Positions 1 to 18,434 are shown, counted from the stretch's first letter. The stretch: DNA of 18,485 nt from Candidatus Nanohaloarchaea archaeon (GCA_046497485.1 JAWOFP010000028.1:1-18485); one strand, 5' to 3'. Notes: a model not told the origin generated them from the sequence alone. A program made the numbers and translations.

Positions 1-861
1 GAAGTAGATGGATTTCCTCTTGTAGTGGATACAGATGAGCCAGAAGAGATAATTGAAACAGTCGAGAATGTTTCTCCAACTTTTGGCGCAGTCAATTTAG
101 AGGATATTTCCGCTCCGGAATGCTTCAGAATTGAGGATGCTTTGAAGAATAGATTAAATGTGCCAGTTTTCCATGACGATCAGCACGGCACCGCGATAGT
201 AGTCAAAGCTGCTCTAGAAAACGCATTGGAGCTCGCAGATAAATCACTGGAAGAATCCAGAATTGTCGTAGTAGGAGCAGGTGCTGCAGGAATCGCGGTC
301 TCAAACTTCCTAGTTGAAGCAGGAGCAGAAAATATTTTGCCGGTAGATTCATCAGGAATTCTTAGAACAGACGATGAGAACATCTACAAAGCCGAATTGG
401 CTGAAAATACCTTGGCTTCAGAGGAAAGCGGAGGCCTATCTGACGCGCTTGAAGATGCGGATGCGGTTATCGGGCTATCAGTTGGAGGCCTGATCTCAAA
501 GGAAATGGTAAATTCAATGGCAGAAGACTCAATTGTTTTTGCCTTAGCTAACCCCGACCCAGAGATCTTACCGGATGAAGCTCGAGAAGCAGGCGCTCTA
601 ATCACAGCGACAGGTCGATCAGACTTTAACAACCAAGTCAATAACTCTCTAGCATTTCCAGGAGTGTTCAGAGGCGCTTTAGATGTTCAAGCCTCGGAAA
701 TCAATGAAGACATGAAGTTAGCGGCTTCCGAAGCAATTCGAGAGTTTGTCGACCCTGAAGTTGAGAAAATTGTTCCTGAAACTCTAGATAAAGAGCTAGC
801 TATGGAGATTGCTGAACGAGTTAGAGAGGCTGCTAAAAGTTCGGGTGTGAACAGGAAGTAG
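1..861 (+). CDS. NAD(P)-dependent malic enzyme (5'-truncated by window edge)
   Basis: Motifs NLEDISAPECF, VFHDDQHGTA, GAGAAG (dinucleotide binding), FALANPDPEI, ATGRSDFNNQVNNSLAFPG. The frame is open from base 1 (EVDGFPLVVDTD...), so the GTG at 25 is not the real start. Confidence 0.93.
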   Translation, partial: EVDGFPLVVDTDEPEEIIETVENVSPTFGAVNLEDISAPECFRIEDALKNRLNVPVFHDDQHGTAIVVKAALENALELADKSLEESRIVVVGAGAAGIAVSNFLVEAGAENILPVDSSGILRTDDENIYKAELAENTLASEESGGLSDALEDADAVIGLSVGGLISKEMVNSMAEDSIVFALANPDPEILPDEAREAGALITATGRSDFNNQVNNSLAFPGVFRGALDVQASEINEDMKLAASEAIREFVDPEVEKIVPETLDKELAMEIAERVREAAKSSGVNRK

Positions 862-892
862 GTTTTTCACTTTACCTTTCTCTTCTCTTTCT

Positions 893-1777
893 ATGAATCA
901 GGATACAAAGGAAAAATATGTTGAAGCAGGCCTAGTTGTCCAAAAGGCCAGGAAAAAGGCTCGAGAAGTAGCAGAGCCAGGCACAAATCTAAAAGCAATA
1001 GTAGATCAGATTGAAGGCCTGATTAGGGATGAAGGTTTAGAGCCGGCTTTCCCAGTGAATGTTTCTATTGATGATGAGGCCGCGCATTACTCTCCAGGAC
1101 CGGATGAAGCTCGAGAACTGAAGGCCTCAGATGTGGTTAAAATCGATATTGGCGCACATAAAGATGGTTATATTGCGGATACTGCACTGACTTTGAACCG
1201 TTCAAATGAATACGAAGAGATGATTGGAGCGGCTGAAAATGCTTTGGAAGAGGCCTTAGACTTTATCGAACCGGGTGTAACTGTAGGAGAGTTAGGTACT
1301 AGGGTTCAGAACAGTGTTCCGGAAGAGTACAGCGTTGTTAGAAACTTGACAGGCCATTATCTAGGCCATTATGAGCAGCATGCCGGTGTTTCCATACCTA
1401 ATATTTCTACAGCAAATACTCATGTGATTGAGAAAGGGGATGCAGTTGCTATAGAGCCTTTCATAACAGATGGTTCTGGTAAAATCAAGAACGGGAAGAA
1501 AGGAAATATTTACATTCATGAAGGCGGGAAAGTCCGAGGTAGAGCCGAGAGAAAACTATTGAAGAAGATTAAAAATTATCAAGGCCTTCCATTCAGTTCA
1601 AGGTGGCTTGATATGAATGCTAGAGAAAAAATGGCGTTGAAGAAGCTGGTAAATGCAGGTGCCGTCAAGCATTACCCGATTCTGAAAGAAGTTGAAGGCG
1701 GCAGAGTCGCTCAAGCTGAACACACGGTATTAGTAGGAGCAGATAATGGAGAAAATATTGTGACTACAAGGCCTTAG
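893..1777 (+). CDS. map: Methionine aminopeptidase, type II (archaeal)
   Basis: AFPVNVS...AAHYSP, KIDIGAHKDGYIADTA, NLTGH, AIEPF and AQAEHT metal-ligand motifs, plus the type II helical insertion. Confidence 0.95.
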   Translation: MNQDTKEKYVEAGLVVQKARKKAREVAEPGTNLKAIVDQIEGLIRDEGLEPAFPVNVSIDDEAAHYSPGPDEARELKASDVVKIDIGAHKDGYIADTALTLNRSNEYEEMIGAAENALEEALDFIEPGVTVGELGTRVQNSVPEEYSVVRNLTGHYLGHYEQHAGVSIPNISTANTHVIEKGDAVAIEPFITDGSGKIKNGKKGNIYIHEGGKVRGRAERKLLKKIKNYQGLPFSSRWLDMNAREKMALKKLVNAGAVKHYPILKEVEGGRVAQAEHTVLVGADNGENIVTTRP

Positions 1778-2289
1778 ATTTTGCAGAATTTTTGCCGGTC
1801 TTTTTCCGATATATATAGTGCGGTGTAGCCAAGTAGACTTATGCCCAAGATGTTTATCTCTAATCCGTTGTATGGTAGGAAGCTTACTCCTATGCTTGTT
1901 CCTGCGAGAGAAATTACTCCGGTTGTGCATGCGGCGCATCCTGAGACTGTCATGCTGAGGATGGTTCCTGTAAGGCCTCCTGTGGCGCCTTCTTTTGTGA
2001 TTACCTGAGTTAGTAAGGCCATGTTTATTCCTACAAGTAAAGAAGTTGTTACTGTTGTTATAACGACTAAAGGTGCTGTCGCATTGTGGTAGCCTGCTAC
2101 AAGCGAGGGAATTAATGAAATAAGTACTGAAAAATTTAGCTCAAAAATATATGAGCTAACTAGGCTTGAATTAGCTACTATCGCAAGAAGAAAATATGAT
2201 GTGAGGGATGCTATCCCTGCTATAGCAGCCGATCGCAGAGTGCTGATCCTTTCCCAGATGTTTGAAAGGTTCGATCTGCTAAGCTTCAT
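1774..2289 (-). CDS. Multi-pass membrane protein with SGCAAC (CxxC) motif
   Basis: 171 aa with about 4 hydrophobic segments and a CAAC motif in a hydrophobic region. Starts 1 nt after the DsbA-like gene stops, so probably co-transcribed. Confidence 0.75.
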   Translation of the reverse strand: MKLSRSNLSNIWERISTLRSAAIAGIASLTSYFLLAIVANSSLVSSYIFELNFSVLISLIPSLVAGYHNATAPLVVITTVTTSLLVGINMALLTQVITKEGATGGLTGTILSMTVSGCAACTTGVISLAGTSIGVSFLPYNGLEINILGISLLGYTALYISEKDRQKFCKI

Positions 2290-2290
2290 C

Positions 2291-3307
2291 TTACTGAGCC
2301 AGTTTATCCTCGATTACAGGCTTAAATGAAGAGTAAGGCTGTGCGCCCTCAATCATCTCGCCTTCGACGAACTGGGTCGGTGTTGCTGTAGCTCCTAATG
2401 CTGAAGCTTCATCTGCGTGATTTTGCACGGTGCTTGACTGTTCGGAGTTATCTATACATGACTGGAAACCGTTCTTTTCCACATTTAGCTGTTCAGCCCA
2501 GGAAACCATTATGGAATCATACTCATCAGGATTCTGTTGCTGTAACTCCTGTAACTCGTCAGAGTTCTGGTAATGATTGTAGTTGAAACTCCAGTAGGCC
2601 TCGGCGTCGCCATGTTCAAGGAAGCATTCAGATACTTCTGCAGGCCTTTCACCGCCTACTACGGGGAAGTTCTTGAAGTAGTACTTGACCTCTCCTGTCT
2701 CGACGTGGTTCTTAACGATGTCTTCGAAGGCTGAATTCATGTTGTTTTCAGCCGCGAAATCAGGGTTGTGGAACCCTGTACAGAACGGACAGAAATAGTC
2801 TTCATAACCGACTATCGTTACTTCAGCATCTTCTTCACCTAGGTAAGGCCTTCCATCCAGTTCAACTTCCGTACCATCCCATTCAACGTTCTCAGAGCCT
2901 GTACCTATATTCACGTCATAAGGCATGGATTCAATCTCTTCAATATCCGAGTTATCAGCGGTCTCTTCTCCAGAAGGATTAGCTTCTTCTCCAGAAGGAT
3001 CAGGCTGATCTCCGTCTTCTGAAGGAGGTGCCGCAACCTCCTCCTCGCTTAACCCGCCTACTCCGAACACTACTGTCCCAAGTAAAAGGCCTGTTAAAAG
3101 GCCTATAAGAAAGCTTCCGTAACCTACCTGTTTGATATTAAGATTTAGGCCTTGCTGTTCTTGATTTAAATTATTCTGTTGATTTTCTGTAGTGCTGGTT
3201 GCTTCAGCACTTTCAGTATCCTCGTCCTCGTGTTTCTGGGCCTGATGTATATGAAGGCCTCTTTCGGAGTCAAACTCCTTCCCACATTTCTCACATTTTT
3301 CTGTCAT
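2291..3307 (-). CDS. DsbA/BdbD-like thioredoxin-fold protein with N-terminal C2H2 zinc finger and a TM helix
   Basis: N-terminal CEKCGKEFDSERGLHIHQAQKH; hydrophobic GYGSFLIGLLTGLLLGTVVFGVGG; C-terminal GEEDAEVTIVGYEDYFCPFC ... GATATPT ... GAQPY, typical of the DsbA family. Confidence 0.85.
   Translation of the reverse strand: MTEKCEKCGKEFDSERGLHIHQAQKHEDEDTESAEATSTTENQQNNLNQEQQGLNLNIKQVGYGSFLIGLLTGLLLGTVVFGVGGLSEEEVAAPPSEDGDQPDPSGEEANPSGEETADNSDIEEIESMPYDVNIGTGSENVEWDGTEVELDGRPYLGEEDAEVTIVGYEDYFCPFCTGFHNPDFAAENNMNSAFEDIVKNHVETGEVKYYFKNFPVVGGERPAEVSECFLEHGDAEAYWSFNYNHYQNSDELQELQQQNPDEYDSIMVSWAEQLNVEKNGFQSCIDNSEQSSTVQNHADEASALGATATPTQFVEGEMIEGAQPYSSFKPVIEDKLAQ
2964..3000. repeat. Tandem duplication (TCTTCTCCAGAAGGAT x2, 21-nt period) in the acidic linker
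   Basis: Identical 16-mers at 2964-2979 and 2985-3000, encoding DPSGEEANPSGEE. Confidence 0.8.
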
Positions 3308-3442
3308 AGTTATCTAAGAATCAATTATTCATGGTTTGATTTAATTCGTTTGGTAGTAAGAGAAATTTGAACCTTCTTCTTACAGTTTATTACAGACTCT
3401 ACTTGATATAACGCCGTTATATTAGGCCGTGAACTACAAATT

Positions 3443-3460
3443 GAAAGAGAAAGAGAAAAA
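3443..3460 (-). terminator. Putative oligo-T/pyrimidine terminator after cdc48
   Basis: The minus strand reads TTTTTCTCTTTCTCTTTC immediately after the cdc48 stop, as expected for an archaeal T-rich terminator. Confidence 0.5.
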
Positions 3461-5725
3461 TTACCCGAAGTAATCGGGTGTTGTCTCATCCTGGTCCAGA
3501 TCTTTCATCTTGCGGGTCATCTGATCATAGAGCTTTCGGTTATCCTCGTTTGCGGTTGGATTAACTTCTGACAAGGCCTTCTCAAACTCGTCCATTGAGA
3601 CTTCCTCGTCTTCAGGATCTTCTCGCAGCGAGATCATTGCGCCTTCTCTACAAAGTGATTCTATATCGCTTCCGACGAAGTGATCAGTCTTCTCAGCTAA
3701 TCTATCTAGATCTACATCGTCAGCTAGAGGCATGTCTCTGGTGTGGACTTCGAGAATCTTTCTTCTGGCTTCTAGGCCTGGAACTTCTACTTCAACGCTT
3801 CTGTCAATTCTTCCAGGCCTTGTAATCGCTGGATCGATCATGTCGGGCCTGTTAGTGGCTGCGATGACTGTTACTCCTTCAAGAGATTCAATTCCATCCA
3901 GTTCTGTGAGGAGCTGGTTTACTACTCTGTCTCCCACTCCTGAATCTGAACTTCCTCCGCCTCTTCTAGGTGCGATTGCATCTATTTCATCTATGAAAAG
4001 GATACATGGCGCGACTTGTCTAGCTTTCTTGAAGACTTCTCTGACAGCCTCTTCCGATTCTCCGACATATTTGGAGAATACTTCTGGGCCTTTAATTGAG
4101 ATGAAGTTTGCATTAGCTTCGTTAGCTATAGCCTTAGCTAAGAGCGTCTTACCGGTTCCTGGCATTCCGTAAAGCATGATGCCTTTCGGAACTTCGATGC
4201 CCATGTGCTCGAATCTTTCAGGGTATTTCTGAGGCCATTCAACCATCTCCTTTAACCGGTCTTTTGTATCGTTTAGGCCTCCTACATCTTCCCAAGAGAC
4301 CTTTGGTACTTCTACCATCACTTCTCTCATTTGGGAAGGCTCAACGTTTCTGAGCCCGTCCATCATTGCGTCTCTGTCCACAATTAGCTTCTCTAGGACT
4401 TCTGAAGGGATTTCCTCATCCATGTCGATCTCAGGCAAAATATTTCTAAGTGTGGACATGGCTGCTTCTTTACATAAGGCCTCAAGATCGGCTCCGACAT
4501 ATCCATGCGTTAAGTCTGCCATTTCTTCTAGATCTACATCTTCTTCTAATGGCATGTTTCTGGTGTGAATCTGTAGGATTTCCTTTCTACCTTTTGAGTT
4601 TGGTACTCCGATTTCTATTTCTCTGTCGAATCTTCCTCCTCTTCTTAGTGCTGGATCAATTGCTTCAGGCCTGTTTGTGGCTGCGATCACGATGACGTTT
4701 TCTCTTGATTCTAGGCCGTCCATTTCTGATAGAAGTGTTGCGACTACTCTTCTCTCGACTTCTCCGCCTGCTTCACCTCTTTTTGGTGCGATTGCGTCGA
4801 TTTCGTCGATGAATATTATGCTGGGTTCGCCTTCACGGGCTTCCTCGAACTTTTCTCTTAACTGTTTCTCGGATTCTCCGTAGTATTTGGACATTATCTC
4901 TGGTCCGTCGATGGAGAGGAAGTTCGCATCGGCTTCGTTCGCGACCGCTTTTGCAAGTAGGGTTTTACCTGTTCCTGGCGGTCCTTGGAGCAGTACTCCT
5001 GAAGGTGCGTCAATTCCAAGCTGTTGGAATACTTCTGGGTGCTTTAAAGGTAGTTCAATCATTTCTCTAACTTGTTGAACTTCGTTATCTAGGCCTCCAA
5101 TGTCTTCATAGGTTACTTCTGGCACTTTGACTTGTTGTTGTGGCTCGCTGACTGCTCTTTCTTTCATTTCGATCTGTGTTGCTTCTGTTATCTTTACTGG
5201 ACCTTTCGGTTTGGTCTTCACAACGCTTAGTTTAGTATCTCCAAAGCTGAAGGAGAAGTTGTCGGCTGAGGTCTCGAACATGTCTTCGAAGAAGCTTCTA
5301 GGCCTGTCCTGGTTTCCTGGTACGATTATGTCGCCTTGCATTAGCGGTCTTCCGACTAGGCCTCTCTTGAAGATGTTTGGATCGCTTACTTGCATCATTA
5401 CTCCGTCTTCTGCTGGCGCTAAAGTGATTTTTTTGGCTTCTTTTACTTCTGCCTGTTCTACTTGTACATGTTCTCCAAGGCTTGTTCCTGCGTTTTTACG
5501 CATGTAGCCATCCATCCTGGCGATTCCTAGGCCTTTGTCCGCTGGATAAGATCTTGCGGCGATTCCTACTGTCTGGCGGTTGCCTTCTACTGTTATGGCG
5601 TCGCCTTCTTGGATGCTTAGTTGTTCCATGATTTTTGAGTCGACACGGATTATTCCACGGCCGACATCTTGCTGTGCGTTTGGAGGTACTTCTCCTACTC
5701 TTAGTCTTACATCATTCTCTGTCAT
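3461..5725 (-). CDS. cdc48: CDC48/VCP (VAT) family AAA+ ATPase
   Basis: N-domain plus two AAA modules: Walker A GPPGTGKT and GMPGTGKT, Walker B IIFIDEID and [17 protein letters not shown]...D.A..R.GR.DR. C-terminus YFG. Confidence 0.97.
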
Positions 5726-6057
5726 GCTGTTTCACCTTCTTTTAGCTTCTCGATAATCGATTTGTCATCGACTATCACCTTGAATATGTGGTGGGAGACC
5801 TTGTCTCCCCAGTCTGAAAAGTAATCATCAACTCTGTCAGTATAGTCTTTTACGATTATGAAAACTGAGTCATCAATTCTGACGTTTGGAACCTCATCCA
5901 TCAACCCGTCTTTGTCGTACTTGTACTCCTTGCCGTTTCTCTTTACTGTCTGTTTGTAACCGAAGAGGCCTCTGTAGAACTGGTTTCTCTCGTATACTGA
6001 GTCGAATTTCTTCCTGTGTGTTCTGTAGCTCAGGAGGGATGCGGGTTTTTCTTTCAT
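5722..6057 (-). CDS. Hypothetical protein translationally coupled to cdc48
   Basis: 111-aa ORF whose TGA overlaps the cdc48 ATG (ATGA). SD-like AGGTGA near its 3' end. Confidence 0.75.
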
Positions 6058-6166
6058 ACTAACAATTCAATCGGATAGAACTATTATAAGTTTTTTTATT
6101 GACGTGAGTAAAAATTCTTGTCTCAATCCTTCCACCGATTTAAGCATTGTGAAGTAATAAATCAAC

Positions 6167-6847
6167 GTGGAAGTAGAGCGAGTATCAACCGGATCCGAAC
6201 TACTAGACGACCTTCTCAAAGGAGGCCTAGAAAAAGGAGTGATAACCAATGTCTACGGAGAATCAGGAACAGGCAAGACTAACTTTGCAGTCCAAGTAGC
6301 AGCAGAAGTAGCGAAAAACGGAAAAGTCGCCTACATCGACACTGAAGGAGGATTTTCTCCAGAAAGAATGAAACAGATCGCGGACGAAGAGGCCTTAGAA
6401 AATCTTGTGATAAGAAATCCTGTGGACTTCGAGCAGCAGGAAGACGCTGTAGACCAGTTAGAAGAGCTTGTCGAAGACGAAAATATAGACTTAGTTGTAC
6501 TTGACTCAGCAGTATCGCTCTACAGGTTGAAGGTGGATGGGGATAATGCACAGGAAATGAATCAGAAACTCTCCAATCAGCTTTCAGAGCTTTCAAAGAT
6601 CGCAAGAACCAACAATATTCCGGTAATAATAACTAATCAGGTCTATACAAGCTTTGACAAAGACGACATCGAGCTAGTCGGAAGAGATGTACCCAAATAC
6701 TGGTCGAAATGCCTTCTGAAAATGAAGGAAAACTCGGACAGAAAAATTAAGATCTCCAAACACCGATCGCTTCCGAAAGGAAGAAGCAGAACTTTTGAGA
6801 TAACAGATGAAGGCTTGGTGCCTGGAGAAGACTCAGGCCTGTTCTAA
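6167..6847 (+). CDS. radB: DNA repair/recombination protein RadB
   Basis: STGSELLDDLLKGG, Walker A GESGTGKT, YIDTEGGFSPER, LVVLDS, VIITNQV and the RadB basic KHR motif (SKHRS). No RadA N-terminal domain. Confidence 0.93.
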   Translation: MEVERVSTGSELLDDLLKGGLEKGVITNVYGESGTGKTNFAVQVAAEVAKNGKVAYIDTEGGFSPERMKQIADEEALENLVIRNPVDFEQQEDAVDQLEELVEDENIDLVVLDSAVSLYRLKVDGDNAQEMNQKLSNQLSELSKIARTNNIPVIITNQVYTSFDKDDIELVGRDVPKYWSKCLLKMKENSDRKIKISKHRSLPKGRSRTFEITDEGLVPGEDSGLF

Positions 6848-6880
6848 ACCACAACTGTAGTTACCGAAAGACAAAGAGTA

Positions 6881-6886
6881 TTTAAA
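6881..6886 (+). promoter_or_regulatory. Putative TATA box (TTTAAA) with purine-rich BRE-like sequence upstream
   Basis: Lies about 27-32 nt upstream of the ATG at 6913, the spacing expected for a leaderless archaeal transcript. Confidence 0.45.
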
Positions 6887-6912
6887 GGCCTGTTTCTATA
6901 TACTCGAATACA

Positions 6913-6990
6913 ATGGACGCATCACATTCAACCTCAGGTGGACGTTTTATTCCAATTAAAGGTGGATGCGTTCTGCAATTTTCAGAATGA
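6913..6990 (+). other. Putative 25-aa leader ORF MDASHSTSGGRFIPIKGGCVLQFSE with two copies of the AGGTGGAYG motif
   Basis: Manual translation from ATG 6913 to TGA 6988-6990. AGGTGGACGTTTT (6936-6948) and AAAGGTGGATG (6958-6968) match the serS/tyrS leader element, in the same reading frame. Confidence 0.5.
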
Positions 6991-7035
6991 ATTTTCTCAA
7001 AGATTAGACTTTTCAGGTATTATTCTGTTTTCAGT

Positions 7036-7084
7036 GAGTCTGCTGCTGCTTGGATAAAGCAGTAGCGGTCTCTTAAACCTTTTT
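7036..7084 (+). terminator. Strong hairpin followed by a T-run (terminator/attenuator-like)
   Basis: GAGTCTGCTGCTGCTT-GGATA-AAGCAGTAGCGGTCTC (7036-7072) forms a stem of about 15 bp with G-U pairs and one mismatch. TTTTT follows at 7080-7084. Confidence 0.55.
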
Positions 7085-7108
7085 CTCAACGAGGTAAGAC
7101 CGTTACAA

Positions 7109-7186
7109 ATGACACAACACAACACCAACCACACAACCGCACACAACCAGAAAACCCAGAAAAAGGCCTCAAAGGAGGTGAAATAA
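7109..7186 (+). other. AC-rich small ORF (MTQHNTNHTTAHNQKTQKKASKEVK) or unstructured leader
   Basis: ATG 7109 to TAA 7184-7186, abutting the ATG at 7187. CACAAC-type repeats. Confidence 0.35.
7174..7181 (+). promoter_or_regulatory. Shine-Dalgarno GGAGGTGA
   Basis: Perfect archaeal anti-SD complement 5 nt upstream of the ATG at 7187. Confidence 0.8.
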
Positions 7187-7465
7187 ATGGTAAAGACAGA
7201 TAAAGGAAGAGCGGTTCATGACGAGGCACAAGGATATGATGATTCTCCGCAGGTAGATGACCGTTTTGAGGATTATGATACTAAAATTCCGGACGATCTC
7301 TCAGATATGTCAGGAGAAGTAGATGATTATGATGTATCGGTAGAAGATGTTGATGTTTCAGTCTGGGATATGTTTGAAGTTAGTCAAAATCCTCTTGAAT
7401 CAGATGATGGAGAAGCAAATCAATCAGACGATAGCGACAGTTATGGTCCGACAACTATGTATTGA
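7187..7465 (+). CDS. Small, extremely acidic hypothetical protein
   Basis: 92 aa, D/E-rich, preceded by a perfect SD. No family recognised. Confidence 0.7.
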   Translation: MVKTDKGRAVHDEAQGYDDSPQVDDRFEDYDTKIPDDLSDMSGEVDDYDVSVEDVDVSVWDMFEVSQNPLESDDGEANQSDDSDSYGPTTMY

Positions 7466-7580
7466 GAGTTTTTAATTGAGATTTAATTCAAAAATAAACT
7501 CTCGGATTTTGTCTAGAATCTATGATTTATTCCCTTTCTTTCTTATTATTCCCTTTCTATATTCTTGATGTGATTCAAAA

Positions 7581-8345: not shown

Positions 8346-8347
8346 AT

Positions 8348-9448
8348 ATGAGGGAAAGAATCAAAAATATCAATTTATCGATCCGAAAGATTTCGGAAAA
8401 AGCAGGGAAACAGGAAGATATAGTACGATTTGATATTGGCCAACCAAGCTTCGACACCCCCGAACATGTCAAAGAAGCGGCCAAAAAAGGCCTGAAAAAC
8501 AAGCAAGGCTACTCTCCGATGCTAGGCCTGGAAGAACTGCGAAAAGAAATCGCAGAAGAAGAGTCAATGAAAGAAGGCCTAGAGATCGATTCTGAAGAAG
8601 TCATGGTCACGACAGGAGGCATGGGCGCGCTTTACGCCGTATTCGCAGCTAGATTAGGAAAAAAAGATAAAGCAGTTTTCAATGATCCGTGCTGGGGGCC
8701 TTACAAGATGATAAGCGAAGTATCCGAAAACGAATGGAGCCAAGTCCAGTACTGGGACGAAGACAGAAATCTTAGGCCTGAAGCAAAAGAAGAAATTAGA
8801 GAGGCTGATCTCTTAGTAGTCAATACGCCAGGAAATCCTACAGGCTATGTCTTGACAGAAGATCAGGCCCGAGAGATCGCAAAGTTCGCGGATGAACATG
8901 ATACTTTCCTTGTATCTGATGAAGTCTACCATAGACTGACTTATGATAAAGAGCATTATTCGCCGGCTTCTTACTCCTCGGATTACTGCATAATTGGTTC
9001 TATGTCGAAGAACCACGCGATGACAGGCTGGAGAACGGGTTGGGTAATCGACAGTCCTGAGAACATTGAACAGTATGCAAAGGTTTCCAGAGCTTCTACA
9101 GCTTGTCCGCCGAGAATCTCTCAGTATGCGGCGATCGAAGCACTACAAAACGACCGTCATGTCAAGGAGATGCAAGAGGCCTATCATGAGAGAAGAGATT
9201 TACTAGTTGAAAGAATGAATGATCTTGGCTGGGATTTTGTCGCTCCAGAGGGTGCGATCTATGCATTCCCGGAAGTAGGAGAGGACTCCTGGAACTTCTG
9301 CATGAGAATGATTGATGAAGGAGTAGCTATGGTGCCTGGAGAACCTATGGGGCCTGAAAGCGATAAGAAAGTCAGGATATGCTTTGGATCCACCACAAAA
9401 GAAGAAATCGAGAAAGCATTTGACAAACTTGAATCAGAGTTGAACTAA
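8348..9448 (+). CDS. PLP-dependent class I aminotransferase (aspartate/aromatic)
   Basis: GQPSFDTP, GYSPMLGLEELR, NTPGNPTG, SDEVY, SMSKNHAMTGWRTG (PLP lysine), VRICF. Start placed at ATG 8348, 2 nt after the pheA stop. Confidence 0.92.
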   Translation: MRERIKNINLSIRKISEKAGKQEDIVRFDIGQPSFDTPEHVKEAAKKGLKNKQGYSPMLGLEELRKEIAEEESMKEGLEIDSEEVMVTTGGMGALYAVFAARLGKKDKAVFNDPCWGPYKMISEVSENEWSQVQYWDEDRNLRPEAKEEIREADLLVVNTPGNPTGYVLTEDQAREIAKFADEHDTFLVSDEVYHRLTYDKEHYSPASYSSDYCIIGSMSKNHAMTGWRTGWVIDSPENIEQYAKVSRASTACPPRISQYAAIEALQNDRHVKEMQEAYHERRDLLVERMNDLGWDFVAPEGAIYAFPEVGEDSWNFCMRMIDEGVAMVPGEPMGPESDKKVRICFGSTTKEEIEKAFDKLESELN

Positions 9449-9451
9449 TTC

Positions 9452-11155: not shown

Positions 11156-11182
11156 TTAAAGCTGGACCTCTAGGTTTTCAGT

Positions 11183-11470
11183 ATGGTAGACAGCTCACTA
11201 GATGAAGCAAGGCAGAATATCGACAAAATAAATAATGAGATAGTTGATAAAGTCGATGAGAGAATGTCAGAAGTCCTTAGAATCGTGAAGTATAAAGAAG
11301 AAAACGATATGGATGTAAAGGATGAGGACCGTGAAGAGGCCGTTGTGAAGCAGTTTGCGGATCGTTTTGAGGAAGCTGAGCTTCCGCGTGAGAGAGGCCG
11401 ACAGCTTGGAAGATTATTGATTGATACCGCTGTAGATCTTGAAAGAGATATGATAGGTAAAAAAGAGTAG
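11183..11470 (+). CDS. aroQ: Chorismate mutase (AroQ type)
   Basis: LDEARQNIDKINNEIV...ER......I..YK......D.DRE pattern; position next to tyrA. Confidence 0.85.
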   Translation: MVDSSLDEARQNIDKINNEIVDKVDERMSEVLRIVKYKEENDMDVKDEDREEAVVKQFADRFEEAELPRERGRQLGRLLIDTAVDLERDMIGKKE

Positions 11471-11478
11471 GCCTTATT

Positions 11479-13530
11479 TTACCAGTCGTCTTTTGAGGCG
11501 CAGTCAGGATCTATACACATAGAATAATCCTTATTATTTTTCCTTTCCACAAAGATCATTGGCTTGCCGCAGGTCTCACACTCTTTATCAGAAGAGTTGA
11601 TGGTGCCGTTATTAGGCAGAGGGTAAGTGTTTTCACAATCAGGGTAGTTTGTACATCCTACAAATCTGCTTCCGTTAGTCTTGATAATCTGTAATATTCC
11701 GTCTTCTCGGTCTTCTTCCTCGCATTTGTCGCAAGGCCCTAACTTTCTCTTCCGGTTCCTTTCAGCGTCAATAGTCTCAACTAACTCAGCTCCAATCTCC
11801 TTTTGTTTTTCCTTGAACTCTCTTAGAACTTCTCCAAGATTATTCTCTGCTTCACTCAATACTTCAGGCCTGGTATTCTCGCCCGACCGGATATTATCCA
11901 TTTTTGTCTCGAAATCTCTAGTAAGATCCTGTGAGACAACTTCTGCACAGTACTTTTCCAGCACATTTACAATGGAGAGGCCTAACTTGGTAACCTCTAT
12001 AGGATCATTTTCGATATAGTCTCGGTTGTATAATCTATCTACAATCTGTGCTCTCGTCGCTTTTGTGCCTAAGTCTCTTTTTTCTAGTTCTGAGACAATC
12101 CCGGACTGAGAGTATCTTCTTGGCGGCTTGGTCTCTTTCTCCATTTTCTCAAATTCATCGACATCGAGTTCTTGTCCTTCTTCAAGTTCAGGTAGTTCGG
12201 CCTCTTCTACACGGACATATGGATCATAGAGATCAAACCAGTTTCTCTCCAAAGTGATTTTTGACTTGGCTTTGAAATCATAACCTAGCACATCAAGCGT
12301 CATTGTGATGCTCTGTCTCTGAGCGGCTTTTCCGAACACTGCAAGGAATCTCTTTACAATTAAATCATAAACTTTTCTCTCTTTCTTTGAAAGGTTTCCA
12401 GGTTGCTCTCCTGTAGGATAGATCGCTGGATGCGCGTCATCCTCTTTTTTACCTTGCTTTGGAGAAACTTTGTCCTTGTTCAAGACTTTTTTAGCAAGCT
12501 TAGTATAGTTATCCTGATTCTTAATTTTCTTCAGCAAGTTTTTGTAGCCTAGAGACGGAGGCAGTTTCTGAGACTCAGTACGAGGATAGGAAATCAAACC
12601 ATTTTCATAGAGAGTCTGAGCAATTGCTTGAGTCTGCTTAGGATTGATATTGAACTGTGATGAGGCCTCGCTCTGCAGATCGGTCAAATTAAAAGGCACG
12701 GGAACTTTATGCTTGTAGTTTCGTGTGTCTACATCGGTTACACGGGTTTTTTCCTCTCCTTCAACAGTCACGTAGATCTGTTCAGCAGTCTCTTCGTCCC
12801 AGATCCGGTCTTCATCATCGTGTTCTAGCTGGGCCTCAATCTCTGAGTTTCTCAAATAGATTTCCCAGTAAGGATCGGGCTCGAACTCCATAATCGATCT
12901 TTCTTTCTCAGCGAGCATCGCCAACGCAGGGCCTTGCACCCGACCCGTAGAAAGGGTCTTGTAACGGTCATTTGATCTAACTGCTTTCATTAAGGCTCTT
13001 GAAACATTAATACCGTAGTAAAAGTCCAGTACATGCCTAGTAAGGCCTGCTTCTGTCATGCCTTTATCAAAAGATTCAAGATTGTCGTATGCATCCTCTA
13101 AATCGCTAGCTGTGAGTGTGGAGAACTTCATCCTCTTAATTCTGTCGTCAGAGGCCTCAGTCAAATGTTTAATAACATTTGCACCGATTACGCTGCCTTC
13201 TAAATCGTAGTCGCAGGCGTTAATGTATTCATCTGCTTTATCCAGTTGGTCCTTCAGATTGTTGTAGTATTTCTTCATGTAGTCGGCTGAGTCGCTGGTC
13301 TCGAAAGTTGGAACCCATTCAACATCGAAGACGGGGTAGTCCCAGGAATCACTTTTGTCATTCAAATTGAATATATGACCTACCGCTGGAGCAATAATAA
13401 CTTTGTCGCCATCAATCTCCAAAATATAGTTTTTGACGCCTCTATTTTCTTCAATAGAATAATTTCCCAGGGCTTGGGCGAGTCTAGAAGCAACTTTAGG
13501 CTTCTCTCCAACCATCACTGTAGTAGCCAT
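11479..13530 (-). CDS. topA: DNA topoisomerase IA
   Basis: TOPRIM GEKPKVA...ACDYDLEGS, STGRVQGP, catalytic ISYPRTES, AHPAIYPT, LGTKATR, C-terminal Zn ribbons. Start moved to MATTVMV (13530). Confidence 0.96.
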   Translation of the reverse strand: MATTVMVGEKPKVASRLAQALGNYSIEENRGVKNYILEIDGDKVIIAPAVGHIFNLNDKSDSWDYPVFDVEWVPTFETSDSADYMKKYYNNLKDQLDKADEYINACDYDLEGSVIGANVIKHLTEASDDRIKRMKFSTLTASDLEDAYDNLESFDKGMTEAGLTRHVLDFYYGINVSRALMKAVRSNDRYKTLSTGRVQGPALAMLAEKERSIMEFEPDPYWEIYLRNSEIEAQLEHDDEDRIWDEETAEQIYVTVEGEEKTRVTDVDTRNYKHKVPVPFNLTDLQSEASSQFNINPKQTQAIAQTLYENGLISYPRTESQKLPPSLGYKNLLKKIKNQDNYTKLAKKVLNKDKVSPKQGKKEDDAHPAIYPTGEQPGNLSKKERKVYDLIVKRFLAVFGKAAQRQSITMTLDVLGYDFKAKSKITLERNWFDLYDPYVRVEEAELPELEEGQELDVDEFEKMEKETKPPRRYSQSGIVSELEKRDLGTKATRAQIVDRLYNRDYIENDPIEVTKLGLSIVNVLEKYCAEVVSQDLTRDFETKMDNIRSGENTRPEVLSEAENNLGEVLREFKEKQKEIGAELVETIDAERNRKRKLGPCDKCEEEDREDGILQIIKTNGSRFVGCTNYPDCENTYPLPNNGTINSSDKECETCGKPMIFVERKNNKDYSMCIDPDCASKDDW

Positions 13531-13622
13531 AAATACGGAATTAATTTTTGTTGTTTTAAAATAAGTGTGAATTAATATTGTGCAACGTAACATTTATATT
13601 TACTCTAGGGTAGCTAAAAATT

Positions 13623-13871
13623 ATGCCGCAGCCAGAGAATATTCGCCCCCGTTATGATAATGATGATGAAAAAATAGCTCACAATACCTTAAATTTAGAT
13701 ATATATGAGTCTGAGGAAGCAACAAGAGTAATCAGTTGCAGAAACAATGAATGGGTTCCTGACTCAGATGATATACATTCTTACCAAAACCATGACGGAG
13801 ATTGGGAAAATGACTATGACCATAATTTCGGGCTTTCTGAAGATTCGAGAGAATTATTAGAAGAAATTTAA
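13623..13871 (+). CDS. Small acidic hypothetical protein
   Basis: 82-aa ORF divergent from topA with halophile-like composition. Confidence 0.55.
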   Translation: MPQPENIRPRYDNDDEKIAHNTLNLDIYESEEATRVISCRNNEWVPDSDDIHSYQNHDGDWENDYDHNFGLSEDSRELLEEI

Positions 13872-13904
13872 AAAAGAAAAAGAGAATGAAATTCTGTACA
13901 AGCC

Positions 13905-14123
13905 TTAATTATTCATTATTCCTGCCAGAATTGTTGAAGCCACTAAAATCGTCGCTGAAAGCACTACAAAGTCTGCGCTTGGCTGCTCTATACCAGCTAA
14001 TGCTGCTCCCTGCACCACTACAAATACTGTGACGAAGAATGTCACGATAGCAAGGAGAATCATGACTGCGAAAGCCACTACATTACCTACCAGGCCTTGA
14101 AGCACATCTACTATATCGGACAT
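13905..14123 (-). CDS. Small two-TM membrane protein
   Basis: 72 aa with two hydrophobic helices. SD-like AGGTGA upstream. Confidence 0.75.
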   Translation of the reverse strand: MSDIVDVLQGLVGNVVAFAVMILLAIVTFFVTVFVVVQGAALAGIEQPSADFVVLSATILVASTILAGIMNN

Positions 14124-14161
14124 AATTTAATTCACCTAACAGTTATTTGGACTCAGGGCTT

Positions 14162-15430
14162 TTATTCCAACTCCAAGTACTCCTGTCCGCCCATATAACT
14201 CTGCAAGGCCTCAGGAATCCTAACTCCATTCTCAGTCTGATTGTTTTCAATAATCGCAGTCATGATTCTGGAAGTCGCACAAGCTGTCGCATTCAAGGTA
14301 TGAGCAACTTCGTTCTCATCGCCTTTTCTAATCCTGACATTGACCTTTCGAGCCTGATAATCAGTACAGTTCGAGCATGATACAATCTCTCCATACTCTC
14401 CAAGCGGAGGCCTCCAAACCTCAATATCATACTTCTTCGCAGCGTTATCATTCATGTCTCCAGTACATACATTTACGACTCTGTAAGGAAGATCTAATCT
14501 CTTAGTAACTTCCTCAGAATTTCTAAGAAGTTCTTCATGCATATCCCAGCTATTCTCGGGTTTACAGAATATGTACTGCTCTACTTTTTCGAACTGATGG
14601 ACTCTCCAAATCCCTCGAGTCTGCTGGCCGTGCTTACCGGCTTCCTGTCTAAAGTTAGTGGAAAAGCCGGCATACTTTTTCGGGAAGTCCTCTTCAAGCA
14701 GCAGATCATCTTTATGTAAAGTGGCTAAGGTCTGTTCCGAGGTCGCAATCAAGTATTTATCCTCATCCTCAATTTTGTAGAGCTGTTCCTCGAAGTCCTC
14801 TAATTCGGCTGCAGCACTCATAGCTTCATAATTCAGCATGTAAGGAGTCTGCATAGGAGTAAAGCCTTTCTCCCTCAGAATATCCATGGAAAACTGGATC
14901 AAGGCCTGATTCAATCTGAAAAGATCTCCCTTCAGATAGTAGGCTCTCTCACCTGCATTTTCAGCAGCCGTCTCGGAATGAATCAAATTATTTTCATCAA
15001 TTATATCGGCAGCAAGCCTTGCGTCTTCAACCTTTCCGCCTTCTGGTTCCCAAGTCTTAATCTCTTTATTATCGTGTTCATCTTCTCCTTGAGGAACTGA
15101 TTCATGCAGAATATTCCCGATCTCAAATCTCAATTCATCTCTCTCCTGTTTCAAGGCCTCTACTTCATCTTCAAGCTCGGAAATCTCTTCCTTAACTTCC
15201 GACATTCTCTCAATCTTATCCTCAGCGTCTTCTCCTGACTGCTTAAGCTCAGCGATTTCATCGCCTACACGGTTCCGCTCAGCTCTAAGCTCCTCGACTT
15301 TCTGAAGCTTTTCACGCCATTCTTCATCAAGATTTACTACCTCTTCTACTTTTTCAGGGTTCTTACCTCTTCTCTCCTCAGAGGCCTTAATCTCCTCAGG
15401 ATTCTCACGGAAAAGTTCAATATCAAGCAT
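14162..15430 (-). CDS. serS: Seryl-tRNA synthetase (bacterial/standard type)
   Basis: MLDIELFREN start, N-terminal coiled coil, LIATSE, motif 2 FRQEAGKHG...GIWRVHQFEKVEQ, EIVSCSNCTDYQAR, HTLNAT. Confidence 0.97.
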   Translation of the reverse strand: MLDIELFRENPEEIKASEERRGKNPEKVEEVVNLDEEWREKLQKVEELRAERNRVGDEIAELKQSGEDAEDKIERMSEVKEEISELEDEVEALKQERDELRFEIGNILHESVPQGEDEHDNKEIKTWEPEGGKVEDARLAADIIDENNLIHSETAAENAGERAYYLKGDLFRLNQALIQFSMDILREKGFTPMQTPYMLNYEAMSAAAELEDFEEQLYKIEDEDKYLIATSEQTLATLHKDDLLLEEDFPKKYAGFSTNFRQEAGKHGQQTRGIWRVHQFEKVEQYIFCKPENSWDMHEELLRNSEEVTKRLDLPYRVVNVCTGDMNDNAAKKYDIEVWRPPLGEYGEIVSCSNCTDYQARKVNVRIRKGDENEVAHTLNATACATSRIMTAIIENNQTENGVRIPEALQSYMGGQEYLELE

Positions 15431-15465
15431 AATTAACGCCTTGTAAAGAAAGTTTTAACTCTAAC

Positions 15466-15523
15466 AGGTTTTGAATCAATGTTCAAAATGCGGCCGGCTG
15501 GAAAAACATCCACCTTTCATTGT
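15466..15523 (-). promoter_or_regulatory. Conserved leader element upstream of serS; uORF MKGGCFSSRPHFEH (15520..15476)
   Basis: ACAATGAAAGGTGGATGTTTTT (15523-15502) is 21/22 identical to the element upstream of tyrS. Second shared block TTCAAAACCT (15475-15466). TTTTTAA about 30 nt upstream of the ATG. Confidence 0.7.
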
Positions 15524-15546
15524 AAATTATAATTCCAGATAAATAG

Positions 15547-15930
15547 TTAAAAATCTGCTCCTTCTAACTCAAGCAACTTTTTCTTGAGACCAAGGCCTCC
15601 ACTATAACCGCCTAAAGCGTTCTTACCAACTACTCGGTGACATGGCACAATAATTGGAACAGGATTACGGCCGCAGGCCTGGCCAACAGCTATCGGAGCA
15701 GTACCTAAAGAATCAGAGATCTCACCGTAAGATCTAGTTTCACCATAAGGAATCTTAATCATTTCTCGCATAACTCTGCCTGTAAAACTGTCTGGAAAAA
15801 CTAGTGCTAGATCAAAAGCCTTTCTCTCAGCTTTACTGTATTCCTCTACTTGTCTTCTAATTTCTTCTTCTGAGGCCTCTATAATGTTTTCATCTACTGA
15901 GGTTTCTTTATCAAAAATATTAATCCTCAT
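15547..15930 (-). CDS. ogt: Methylated-DNA--protein-cysteine methyltransferase
   Basis: IPYGETRSYG, AVGQACGRNPVPIIVPCHRVV, LGGYSGG...K..LLELEG. Start at ATG 15930 overlaps the upstream TGA (ATGA). Confidence 0.93.
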   Translation of the reverse strand: MRINIFDKETSVDENIIEASEEEIRRQVEEYSKAERKAFDLALVFPDSFTGRVMREMIKIPYGETRSYGEISDSLGTAPIAVGQACGRNPVPIIVPCHRVVGKNALGGYSGGLGLKKKLLELEGADF

Positions 15931-16667
15931 TTTTCTACTATCCAAATCATCTCCTGTTTTGAATCTTCCAGCTCTTCAAGATCAAAGCCTCCATAGACTT
16001 CCCAGTCGCTGAAACTAGAATTTTCGAGCAAAAGTTCGAATTCAGTCCTTGTTATCATCTTGGTATTTGCTTTTGAGCTCCATTTTTCTTCTCCATCTTT
16101 TACTAGTTTTTTCTCGAACTCTATTATCCAGTTCACCGAGTCGATCATTTCAACATTTTCTACAAGAGTATATTCGCCATCCTGAATTTCTCTTGTTTTT
16201 TCTTTACCGTAATTTTCAGCGATGAAATCAATGTCAGGACTGTAAAAGTTCAAAATCAGTTTCCCATCATCTTCTAGATGTCTATAGATTGAATCAAGTG
16301 TTGACAACTGATCTTCGATTGTCAGATTATGCAGGAAACTTCTGTAAGGAATTATAATCAATGAGAATTTTTCATCAAGATTAAAGTCTCTCATATCCTC
16401 TTGAGAAACATCGGGATTAAGACTTCTTTTCTCAGCTTTTTCTCTAAGCTTCTCTAGCATCTCTTCCGAAAGATCGATTCCATAGGCCTCTACGCCCTCT
16501 TCCAACATCTGGAGGTAGATTCTTCCGGTTCCACAGGCGACTTCTAGAACTTTTCCGTCAGTCTCTTTCGCTCTCTCAACATAAAAATCTATGTCATTGC
16601 CGTCGTTGTTCTCTTGAGATACTATATCGTATAGGTCGGCGTAATCCTTCACATCTTCGTAGGGCAT
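15927..16667 (-). CDS. Class I SAM-dependent methyltransferase
   Basis: VLEVACGTGR (motif I), GIDLSEEML, DMRDF, HLEDDGKLI. Confidence 0.9.
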   Translation of the reverse strand: MPYEDVKDYADLYDIVSQENNDGNDIDFYVERAKETDGKVLEVACGTGRIYLQMLEEGVEAYGIDLSEEMLEKLREKAEKRSLNPDVSQEDMRDFNLDEKFSLIIIPYRSFLHNLTIEDQLSTLDSIYRHLEDDGKLILNFYSPDIDFIAENYGKEKTREIQDGEYTLVENVEMIDSVNWIIEFEKKLVKDGEEKWSSKANTKMITRTEFELLLENSSFSDWEVYGGFDLEELEDSKQEMIWIVEK

Positions 16668-16719
16668 AATAACGAATTAGAAAAGGTATAAAGAAAAATG
16701 TGGTTGTTTCCTCAAGCCT

Positions 16720-17766
16720 CTAACTCCACTCCTCTTTTTCAGGATAAGCCCTTTCCAGTAACTCATCTTCGTCTTCAAACCTTTCTCTGATAGGCCTGAG
16801 GATGTTTGCGAGCTCTTTGCCGGTAGCTTCTTTTAAGTCTTGAGGGTGAAGCTCCTCAGAAACGAAATCTTCCTTCAAGTCCTCATAACTCGAGTATTCA
16901 AGGTCGCCTCCGTATTTTTCAGGTCTCTCAACTACAAAGTTCTCTCCGTCCTGTTCGAGGATCGGGAAAATCAAGTAATTTAGGTATTCTAGGACTCCAT
17001 TATCCTCTACTTCTCCTTGAGGGCAGTAGGCCTCGTTGATTTTTTCACTGACATCTTCTTCAGTGTCATGGATACTGATCTTCGAGTTTTCATCTGATGC
17101 ACTCATCTTTCCGCCTGTCAGGCCTGAAAGCAGAGGTGCGAATATGCTTGTCGGCTTTTTCTCTCCAATATCTGGCAGAACTTCTCTGGCGAGCATATAG
17201 ATTCTTCTCTGATCTCTTCCGCCGTAGGCAACGTCCACATCTAGACCTGGAGATGCGCAGTCCATTATCTGCATCGCGCTATAAAGCAGTCCTGAGGCCT
17301 TCATACCGTCGCTGTTTCTAACTACTTCGTTTACAGATCTCTGCATCCTGTTGACTGTGGCTTCTTCCATGATCTTCATGTAGCCTTTCTGGTATTCGGG
17401 ATCGTGCTGGAACTCGCTACCTCTGACAAACTCAATATCGTTTTCATCTATGCCTGAGGCTTCCAGCATCCCCTGAATGGCCTTTCTGTAGTACTCTGTT
17501 CTTGCGTCGACCAGTTTACGCGGTGATTTCTCTATGTCTAACTCTGCGTGTATATCCGCCAAAAGGAACTTGAAAGTGAATCCAGACTCCACGAAATCAG
17601 CGATCTTTCTGACTGTGGTGAAATGCCCTATGTGCATGGTTCCTGTCGGGGCGTATCCAATGTATGCGACAGGATTGTCTTTGTCAAGAATTCCTTCGAT
17701 TTCGTCCTCTGTTATTGTTTCAGCGGTGTTCCGCAGAAGCAGTTCTTTGCGTTCATTATTATCCAT
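16720..17766 (-). CDS. tyrS: Tyrosyl-tRNA synthetase (archaeal type)
   Basis: AYIGYAPTGTMHIGH (HIGH), LLADIHA, LYSAMQIMD, GGRDQR, KMSAS (KMSKS), AYCP, LHPQDLK. Confidence 0.95.
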   Translation of the reverse strand: MDNNERKELLLRNTAETITEDEIEGILDKDNPVAYIGYAPTGTMHIGHFTTVRKIADFVESGFTFKFLLADIHAELDIEKSPRKLVDARTEYYRKAIQGMLEASGIDENDIEFVRGSEFQHDPEYQKGYMKIMEEATVNRMQRSVNEVVRNSDGMKASGLLYSAMQIMDCASPGLDVDVAYGGRDQRRIYMLAREVLPDIGEKKPTSIFAPLLSGLTGGKMSASDENSKISIHDTEEDVSEKINEAYCPQGEVEDNGVLEYLNYLIFPILEQDGENFVVERPEKYGGDLEYSSYEDLKEDFVSEELHPQDLKEATGKELANILRPIRERFEDEDELLERAYPEKEEWS

Positions 17767-17829
17767 TATTTTGATCTACCTGTGAATTGGTTGGGAGAGA
17801 ACGCTTAAAGATTTAGAGCTGAATTTAGA

Positions 17830-17884
17830 AGGTTTTGAAACTTTTCTACATGTGTCGACGGTAAAAACGTCCACCTTTCATTGT
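17830..17884 (-). promoter_or_regulatory. Conserved leader element upstream of tyrS; uORF MKGGRFYRRHM (17881..17846)
   Basis: ACAATGAAAGGTGGACGTTTTT (17884-17863), TTCAAAACCT (17839-17830), TTTAAAA about 30-36 nt upstream of the ATG. Confidence 0.7.
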
Positions 17885-17927
17885 GTATCAAATAGGGATT
17901 CTGGACCGAATTTTAAATCATTATCCT

Positions 17928-18434
17928 CTATACCACGTCCACAACTTCAGGCTCGACGACGTTAAACAATTCTTCTCTATCAATTTTCACACCTATAACT
18001 CGAGAACCGCCAGCAGGCCTCACCTCTCCTTCGGGTATGTCATCTGATGCGTAGACTGGTATTTCTAGGTTAAATGGTGAGACTCCTCCAACTATGTAGC
18101 CAGTCTCTTCTTCTACTTCTGAAGGCTTTGCCATCCTAACCTCTCCAACTAAATCCTCTAATTTATCCTCATCTACTCGCTTATGACCGGGACACATCAC
18201 AGCGATAAAATCATCTGAGGCCTTGAAAATCAAAGTCTTGATAATCTGATATCTATCAATCGGAGAATGCTGGACGGATTCGTCGACGGTTTCGGCCTTT
18301 GCATGGACTTCAAAATCTGCATCAAGGCCTTCCAGTTTTTCAATTACTTTTCTGACATTTTGAATATCTTCTTCTAGGAAATCTAGAATTTGTTCGAGTT
18401 CTGATGGTTTCTGTGTGAAAGATTTCAGAGACAT
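17928..18434 (-). CDS. YbaK/ProX-family aminoacyl-tRNA deacylase
   Basis: IIKTLIF (conserved Lys), EETGYIVGGVSPF, PAGGS motifs. Confidence 0.88.
   Translation of the reverse strand: MSLKSFTQKPSELEQILDFLEEDIQNVRKVIEKLEGLDADFEVHAKAETVDESVQHSPIDRYQIIKTLIFKASDDFIAVMCPGHKRVDEDKLEDLVGEVRMAKPSEVEEETGYIVGGVSPFNLEIPVYASDDIPEGEVRPAGGSRVIGVKIDREELFNVVEPEVVDVV

Follow-up and report, generated by a model that had tools for sequence, protein, structure and literature searches.

The AGGCCT palindrome is highly iterated in a nanohaloarchaeal genome and is gained and lost among its close relatives

AGGCCT copies and genes in the window

We analysed an 18,485-nucleotide stretch of DNA from Candidatus Nanohaloarchaea archaeon (GCA_046497485.1, JAWOFP010000028.1:1-18485; hereafter the window), which is the whole of contig C2 of the genome under study, G000. 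The window carries ordinary housekeeping genes, including those for malic enzyme, an M24 peptidase, Cdc48, a RadA/RadB-like protein, enzymes of the prephenate pathway, topoisomerase I, seryl-tRNA synthetase (SerRS), Trp/TyrRS and Ogt. The subject of this study is the six-base palindrome AGGCCT, of which we observed 68 exact copies in the window (3.68 per kb, 67 gaps; Table 1). Dinucleotide-preserving shuffles gave 4.35 ± 1.84 copies with a largest value of 9, and none of 200 reached 68. All three frames were used (12 copies as AGG-CCT, 23 as xAG-GCC-Txx and 29 as xxA-GGC-CTx); three copies were intergenic and one straddled a stop codon. Synonymous-codon shuffling of the 20 open reading frames (ORFs) left 8.2 ± 2.6 copies (largest 19 in 500) compared to 64 observed. 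A sequence-only reading of the window had counted about 67 copies, placed them in all three frames and at non-coding or junction sites (6886 and 11469), and judged codon bias an unlikely cause. Its 16 example coordinates were all correct, and the frame counts and the shuffle agree with its description.

Contigs similar to the window were found in 15 public runs, all matches being contigs; we compared those of runs X1, X3 and X8 over 40 of about 2900 differences. Single copies in the Cdc48 and topoisomerase genes read differently in some of these contigs (Table 1), and the difference in the Cdc48 gene is a strain-level gain or loss. The small word shares in most public runs are no evidence of habitat. 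A strain-variable spot lies between the topoisomerase and SerRS genes, and a methyltransferase gene overlaps the start of the Ogt gene (Table 1).

Table 1. Coordinates of AGGCCT copies and of other features named in the text
Feature	Sequence	Coordinates	Strand	Remarks
Span of all 68 copies	Window	432..18330		64 in ORFs, all three phases; 4 intergenic or straddling
Closest pair	Window	3087..3104		Starts 12 bp apart; sole gap <30 bp among 67
Copy within Cdc48 gene	Window	4667..4672		AGCCCT (4669 G>C) in contigs of three other public runs
Intergenic copy	Window	6886..6891		Downstream of RadA/RadB-like gene
Intergenic copy	Window	7164..7169
Three copies in aminotransferase gene	Window	8488..8580		Spacing 36 and 51 bp; densest stretch named in the sequence-only reading
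Copy across chorismate mutase stop codon and spacer before topoisomerase gene	Window	11469..11474		Chorismate mutase ORF 11183-11470
Copy within topoisomerase gene	Window	13152..13157		AAGCTT (13153 G>A, 13156 C>T) in two run X3 contigs
Strain-variable segment	Window	13531-13889		Replaced by about 1225 other letters in X1 and X8 contigs, by 401 in X3
82-amino-acid ORF	Window	13623-13871		Inside the strain-variable segment
Intergenic copy	Window	14092..14097
Ogt (O6-methylguanine-DNA methyltransferase) gene	Window	15547-15945	-
Class-I S-adenosylmethionine (SAM) methyltransferase gene	Window	15927-16667	-	Overlaps start of Ogt gene by 19 nt
5-methylcytosine (m5C) methyltransferase gene, 388 amino acids	G000 contig C53	L001:98-1264	-	Head to head with the next ORF
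ORF with McrB-like AAA domain, at least 469 amino acids	G000 contig C53	L001:1322-2728	+
NucS/EndoMS gene	G000 contig C7	C7:15056-15370		Locus L266, G000:C7:13556-16870
RadC-like JAB gene	G000 contig C7	C7:15831-16490		Adjoins the NucS/EndoMS gene
UvrD/AddA-like helicase, C-terminal part	G000 contig C62	L002:1-975	+
Integrated element with family B DNA polymerase	G005	L192:6224-11976 (G005:686224-691976)
Long topoisomerase I ORF	G063	G063:C1:16729-23298		Loci L279, L280

Genome-wide excess and coding-level controls

The G000 assembly comprises 967,558 bp in 66 contigs at 41.5% G+C and is rated 97% complete. AGGCCT occurs 3249 times compared to 153.7 expected (zero-order), a 21.1-fold excess that makes it the commonest of the 4096 hexamers, at one copy per 298 bp. 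All 66 contigs were enriched (1.83-5.84 copies per kb). The word encloses 70% of the 4609 GGCC in the genome, and the nine NGGCCN words with neither a flanking A nor a flanking T have only 454 copies together. The maximal-order Markov ratio was 1.09; it is low and uninformative, since AGGCC and GGCCT, the two pentamers within AGGCCT, hardly occur elsewhere.

Crude calling gave 1039 ORFs (89.4% coding). We observed 2878 sites in ORFs, 357 between them and 14 straddling, or 3.33 per kb of coding sequence compared to 3.49 per kb of intergenic DNA; the coding copies split by frame into 520, 973 and 1387. Within-gene synonymous shuffling gave 404 ± 14 copies (largest 444 in 50) and codon-order shuffling 190 ± 13, compared to 2880 observed. 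AGGCCT filled 2880 of the 4324 peptide contexts that permit it (67%). Arg-Pro dipeptides stood at 1.61 times expectation vs 0.85 for Pro-Arg, and Gly-Leu at 1.44 vs 1.04 for Leu-Gly; these excesses indicate that the force behind the word also shifts protein sequence. The AGGCCT excess is real, genome-wide, exerted at the level of DNA and at equilibrium. The sequence-only reading had likened it to HIP1, the highly iterated palindrome (HIP) of cyanobacteria, and had proposed a genome-wide signal. That view is supported, as the excess survives a codon-preserving null and extends well beyond the window. Of the causes that it named, a chromatin protein site or a recombination cue may apply.

Flanks, spacing and placement of the sites

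The core of the word in G000 is no longer than the hexamer. It has a weak symmetric flank (A at 0.39-0.45 at positions +3/+4, with T mirrored upstream), alike at 297 intergenic and 2877 coding sites. The flank was stronger in G005, a rich genome of another genus (C 0.44, T 0.45 and A 0.46 at +1 to +3, with A only 0.10 at +1), and likewise the same in spacers and genes. The extended word there is TAGAGGCCTCTA, and GAGGCCTC has 690 copies with an observed/expected ratio (O/E) of 62. Symmetric flanks that differ between lineages suggest a protein that reads about 12 bp.

Words one letter off AGGCCT had O/E of 0.77-1.54 in G000, transitions being highest. AGGTCT/AGACCT stood at 2.32 in G004, where they are decay products, at 0.71 in G005 and at 1.72 in G018, and the half-correct words AGGCCC/GGGCCT at 3.15 in G005 vs 0.31 in G018. 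This pattern suggests that the agent in G005 grades its recognition, with a strict GGCC core and a preference for the outer A/T.

Sites were rarely close together. Gaps below 30 bp numbered 74 compared to 311 expected from an exponential in G000, and 214 compared to 462 in G005; the closest pair in the window, with the lone gap of this size, illustrates the deficit. Neighbouring permissive contexts 6-30 nt apart were both filled in 52 cases, compared to 150 expected from global occupancy. Long gaps were not depleted: 82 exceeded 1 kb in G000, where a 40-bp-shifted exponential gives about 69, and the longest lay in low-G+C, foreign-looking stretches.

Every 20-kb bin of the complete G005 genome contained 2.55-4.85 sites per kb. 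Around gene starts and stops the profile was flat, save that density fell to 1.86 per kb over the initial 20 nt of genes, and a role as a gene signal was rejected. We observed no 10-bp (nucleosome-type) phasing. Over 5-200 kb in G005 there was no periodicity either: the best period, 52 kb, had a power reached by 18.6% of 500 gap shuffles, in a test simpler than that of Xu et al. 2018. In the rRNA genes of G005 we counted no more than 3 copies over 4.4 kb; RNA genes under strong constraint are thus left unfilled. The rRNA of G005 is archaeal, the partial 16S in G000 is 92% identical to it, and the proteome is acidic and of archaeal type.

The trait among relatives

Twelve of the 70 genomes of the phylum are AGGCCT-rich, and they fall in four genera of one family: 4 of 5 genomes in the window's genus (g1), 3 of 3 in g7, 3 of 3 in g19 and 2 of 6 in g2. 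Single-contig genomes of other genera are just as rich in the word. G004, a member of g1, is intermediate (762 copies in 815,638 bp), and in the remaining genomes AGGCCT was at or below the reversed-word control.

We built a tree of topoisomerase I (TopA) from 38 genomes, by a quick method and from this one gene. It placed g1, g7 and g19 in one clade together with the poor genome G024 (support 94), nested the rich pair G005 and G060 (support 99) among poor congeners, and needs at least three changes of AGGCCT state. Neither G004 nor 220 kb of G018 showed a palindrome in place of AGGCCT; the top one in G018 reached only 3.4-fold. The AGGCCT force is a discrete heritable trait, gained and lost, and switchable between close relatives.

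Two side observations arose from these comparisons. AGGCCT was depleted relative to the reversed-word control in G020 (73 vs 491), G021 (55 vs 362), G024 (97 vs 344) and G028 (32 vs 86), which looks like restriction-site avoidance of AGGCCT or GGCC; two of these genomes, G020 and G024, encode m5C methyltransferases that resemble each other, at 338-340 amino acids. For G000, avoidance in the manner of a restriction-modification target is the opposite of the observed excess. The topoisomerase I ORF of G063 has 1244 amino acids rather than about 690, and its match is split near query residue 390-400, which suggests an intein-like insertion.

Decay and saturation at orthologous positions

We codon-aligned 397 three-way orthologues of G000, G004 and G005 (339,870 nt, pairwise identity 0.62-0.68). 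Permissive contexts were occupied at 0.74 in G000, at 0.75 in G005 and at 0.22 in G004; the poor genome G018, over 220 kb, had 34 of 579 filled (0.059). Relative to this background, the rich occupancy amounts to an odds ratio of about 33, or a scaled strength of about 3.5.

Where G000 and G005 are both filled (431 positions), G004, the sister of the rich genome G003, retains the word at 62. At 180 of the 369 lost positions a word one letter off remains; in 116 of these the change is C>T or G>A within the inner four letters, mostly falling on synonymous sites of the codon. Because this spectrum resembles plain neutral decay, G004 appears to have lost the force. Once the force is lost, sites decay by ordinary substitutions, as in G004.

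We also applied the Jaccard test of Xu et al. 2018 to G000 and G005. AGGCCT scored 0.210, compared to 0.038 for 23 control palindromes of equal G+C, 0.056 for 18 one-off words and 0.052 for all other four-G/C hexamers. When only the 738 permissive contexts common to both genomes were considered, both were filled in 431, compared to 405 if filling were independent (odds ratio 2.4), and G000 contexts not common to G005 had the same occupancy of 0.74. These data show that site sharing is almost entirely a matter of independent saturation. Permissive positions behave as a two-state system held at about 0.7 in any gene, frame or chromosomal place.

Methylation and mismatch repair

G000 contains one m5C methyltransferase, which lies head to head with an ORF bearing an McrB-like AAA domain (Table 1). 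We take the pair to resemble an LlaJI-type restriction-modification or methyl-dependent restriction module. Its contig, C53, has the lowest AGGCCT density in G000 (1.83 per kb). The catalytic parts of the enzyme match M.HaeIII (E 9e-33), whereas the middle part, which recognises the target, does not align. We detected no relative of it in the complete rich genomes G005, G010 and G022.

The other methyltransferase families tested did not follow the word. PF00145 (m5C) was present in 1 of 12 rich genomes compared to 15 of 38 other genomes of the family. PF01555 exceeded the cut-off only in G022 among 7 rich genomes searched, a weak match in G000 being a THUMP tRNA methyltransferase. Type I HsdM-like genes (PF02384) were found in G005 and G022 only and were absent from G000, PF02086 was found in none of 5 rich genomes, and large type-IIG-like ORFs (PF07669) occurred only in G005 and G010. 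The AGGCCT excess is independent of every DNA methyltransferase family tested. The sequence-only reading had put methylation-directed repair first among possible causes and had suggested a search for an orphan GGCC/AGGCCT methyltransferase; with m5C enzymes in 1 of 12 rich genomes and no tested family common to them, that link is not supported. Two nanohaloarchaeal methylome papers (PMC10266531, PMC11001535) report only GDGCHC methylation in the sections drawn on here, for a strain not matched to a rich genome.

MutS (PF00488, MutS_V) had no match in G000, at 97% completeness; MutL was not searched for. NucS/EndoMS is present in G000, and its gene adjoins a RadC-like JAB gene (Table 1). The model of Elhai 2015, in the sections of that paper used here, requires MutS/MutL mismatch repair (PMC4390886). 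Because the rich genomes share no methyltransferase of the families tested and MutS was not found in G000, this model lacks both its parts here.

Search for a determinant gene

We compared gene content between genomes with and without the trait. Of 1039 G000 ORFs, 105 had a match in G005 and none in G004, and a Pfam scan covered 55 of the 105 G005 counterparts. With G004 at 92% completeness, some of these absences may reflect assembly gaps, and a broken or retargeted gene would escape a presence/absence filter. Fourteen genes were truncated in G004, mostly at contig ends.

Several DNA-related candidates were rejected on their distribution. A VRR-NUC/AbrB-like protein was present in 12 of 41 relatives, 7 of them poor, and in each of the 5 further g2 genomes searched, a DUF123 protein in 29 of 41, a PD-(D/E)XK-like protein of 382 amino acids in 20 of 41 and a PAPS-reductase-like protein in 23 of 41. 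RadC was present in 5 of 5 genomes searched. The SAM methyltransferase of the window had an orthologue among the 41 relatives only in G005 (67% identity). The rest of the 105 were mostly transporters, metabolic enzymes and unknowns.

G005 also carries an integrated element with a family B DNA polymerase (PolB; 698 amino acids), a 244-amino-acid gene and a tyrosine integrase (Table 1). The element adjoins a tRNA gene near a type I HsdM gene, and matching pieces lie on G000 contigs C25 and C28. This PolB/integrase island was rejected as a candidate, parts of it being present in poor congeners too. A search of viral contigs with the G005 PolB gave no match. On G000 contig C62 we observed the C-terminal part of a UvrD/AddA-like helicase with, by eye, a Cas4/RecB-type nuclease end, so G000 may have a helicase-nuclease like those that recognise Chi words in bacteria.

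Discussion

We tentatively favour the explanation that a putative AGGCCT-specific DNA protein, gained and lost among lineages, biases repair or gene conversion toward the palindrome. The agent would be a single, probably dimeric, sequence-specific protein that reads about 12 symmetric bp (TnnAGGCCTnnA in G000, TAGAGGCCTCTA in G005). It would bias the repair of mismatches or breaks, or gene conversion, toward the perfect palindrome, and would thereby act as a molecular drive of scaled strength about 3.5 that needs neither DNA methylation nor MutS. We infer both the gain and loss of such an agent and the bias itself, which at equilibrium would give the same counts as selected sites.

Several observations weigh against this explanation. 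Among the DNA-related genes tested from the 105, none had the distribution of rich and poor genomes. The one-off neighbours are not depleted in G000 (O/E 0.77-1.54). Because the equilibrium counts are alike for biased conversion and for weak per-site selection, the numbers also fit a selected function. The few losses seen in rich G000, 10 of 14 being transitions, have a spectrum that looks like neutral decay and thus points to no specific repair chemistry. The ORF calls were crude, the tree was a quick one from a single gene, and several rich genomes are 68-82% complete.

The strongest alternative is that the copies are working binding sites, kept under weak selection for an abundant chromosomal protein with a part in nucleoid organisation, segregation or the marking of strands for repair, so that function sets their density. 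The avoidance between sites at protein-footprint distances, the lineage-specific symmetric flanks over about 12 bp and the uniform spread along the chromosome fit this, as does positional sharing far above that of control palindromes (Jaccard 0.21 vs 0.038). Xu et al. 2018 (PMC5861425) used a sharing test of this type to argue for selection on HIP1. Here, however, independent saturation accounts for the sharing (431 vs 405). Long gaps are not depleted (82 above 1 kb vs about 69), and the sites show neither 10-bp phasing nor 5-200 kb periodicity. In addition, close relatives manage without the word, and its loss from G004 left no visible replacement. We place a repair or conversion bias ahead of a selected function at each site, which we regard as possible but doubtful.

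Under the classical HIP mechanism, an orphan AGGCCT/GGCC methyltransferase together with methyl-directed or very-short-patch-type mismatch repair would create and protect the word (Elhai 2015). The single G000 enzyme with catalytic parts like M.HaeIII would suit this mechanism, as would the low level in G005 of AGGTCT/AGACCT, the products of inner-C deamination (0.71 vs 1.72 in G018), and a methyltransferase of a family outside those tested could still take the role. Even so, we consider it improbable. PF00145 occurs in 1 of 12 rich genomes vs 15 of 38 others, and PF01555, PF02384, PF02086 and PF07669 are not common to rich genomes. The G000 enzyme itself has no relative in G005, G010 or G022, lies on the site-poorest contig and has a target-recognition part that cannot be aligned with M.HaeIII; moreover, MutS was not found in G000.

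Alternatively, AGGCCT could be an uptake or self-recognition word, driven up by preferential import or recombination. Well-known words of this type are the uptake signal sequences (USS) of Pasteurellaceae and the DNA uptake sequences (DUS) of Neisseriaceae, which occur about once per kb in genes and spacers, spread by molecular drive, distort peptides and form lineage dialects. AGGCCT resembles them in its even distribution over all frames and spacers, in the distortion of peptides and in lineage flanks that differ like dialects, and foreign-looking low-GC islands are poorer in sites. On the other hand, six bases discriminate little, and repulsion acts below 30-75 bp rather than at the scale of fragments. 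USS and DUS are 9-12 nt long, non-palindromic and tied to competence machinery. We judge this origin slightly more improbable than the methylation mechanism.

Finally, although GGC, GCC, AGG and CCT are ordinary codons and the maximal-order Markov ratio is only 1.09 (low only since AGGCC and GGCCT are scarce outside the word), a by-product of amino-acid or codon usage, or an assembly artefact, is refuted by the synonymous and codon-order shuffles (404 and 190 vs 2880) and by the equal intergenic density, and the word is as rich in single-contig genomes of other genera, which leaves this explanation with practically no weight.

The nearest known system is HIP1 (GCGATCGC), which is 15-300 times over-represented in cyanobacteria and whose cause is unexplained in the parts of Xu et al. 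2018 (PMC5861425) on which we draw. As far as those parts describe it, HIP1 and AGGCCT are alike: both are short, G+C-rich palindromes, hyper-abundant genome-wide (21-fold for AGGCCT), found in all frames and in spacers, in excess of codon-preserving nulls and shared between genomes far above control palindromes. AGGCCT also resembles HIPs in its sporadic presence or loss among related genomes (12 of 70 rich, g2 split 2 to 4, G004 decaying). It differs in having six letters rather than eight, a higher density (1 per 298 bp) and an archaeal host, and the AGGCCT genomes have no cognate methyltransferase in the families tested, with no MutS found in G000. Conservation of one-off variants above controls (HIP1* in the case of HIP1) is not clear for AGGCCT (0.056 vs 0.038 and 0.052). 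HIP1 is periodic at 10-90 kb in the same parts of Xu et al. 2018 (PMC5861425), whereas AGGCCT has no large-scale periodicity in G005 and its sharing is explained by independent saturation.

Single cyanobacterial strains carry alternate HIPs, for example of the GGCGCC, GCCGGC and GCsGC types, each of which comes with a methyltransferase of that specificity in the portion of the Elhai 2015 survey (PMC4390886) consulted here. In that portion, they are like AGGCCT in being six-letter palindromes that are sporadic in single lineages and missing in relatives. They differ in their enzymes, since 11 of the 12 AGGCCT-rich genomes have no m5C methyltransferase and no tested family is common to them. We found no paper that joins AGGCCT with nanohaloarchaea or describes an archaeal iterated palindrome.

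Context-specific repair toward a word has precedents. In E. coli, very-short-patch repair acts with Dcm (CCWGG) to restore T:G mismatches toward the methylated word, and in Methanothermobacter the MthTI enzyme and the T/G glycosylase Mig.Mth form a GGCC system; GGCC is a known archaeal methylation target. Both systems need an m5C methyltransferase and shift word frequencies modestly. AGGCCT departs from them in that G000 shows no depletion of the neighbouring words that deamination would produce.

For about thirty years HIP1 has lacked an explanation, in part since nearly all cyanobacteria carry it and offer no clean contrast. AGGCCT is a HIP-type word in another domain of life, in genomes of about 1 Mb, at a higher density and switched within one genus. 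For the AGGCCT-rich genomes, the leading explanation by methylation and MutS can be set aside. Since independent saturation fills the same permissive positions in two lineages, conservation of sites alone is no proof of selection on them. In practical terms, AGGCCT skews codon usage, dipeptide content and k-mer signatures, which matters for binning, codon-bias studies and the detection of horizontal transfer in these archaea, and StuI-type enzymes would cut AGGCCT-rich DNA about every 300 bp.

A fuller version of the explanation by biased repair or conversion is more speculative: a single, horizontally mobile, so far unrecognised protein family might write AGGCCT by this route without methylation or MutS and saturate about 70% of permissive positions. 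If true, this would be a methylation-independent genome-writing drive, with thousands of codons and about a thousand dipeptides reshaped. The natural on/off sets, G003 vs G004 and G005 with G060 vs four congeners, would then allow the gene to be identified, and with it a general answer on the origin of HIP-type words.

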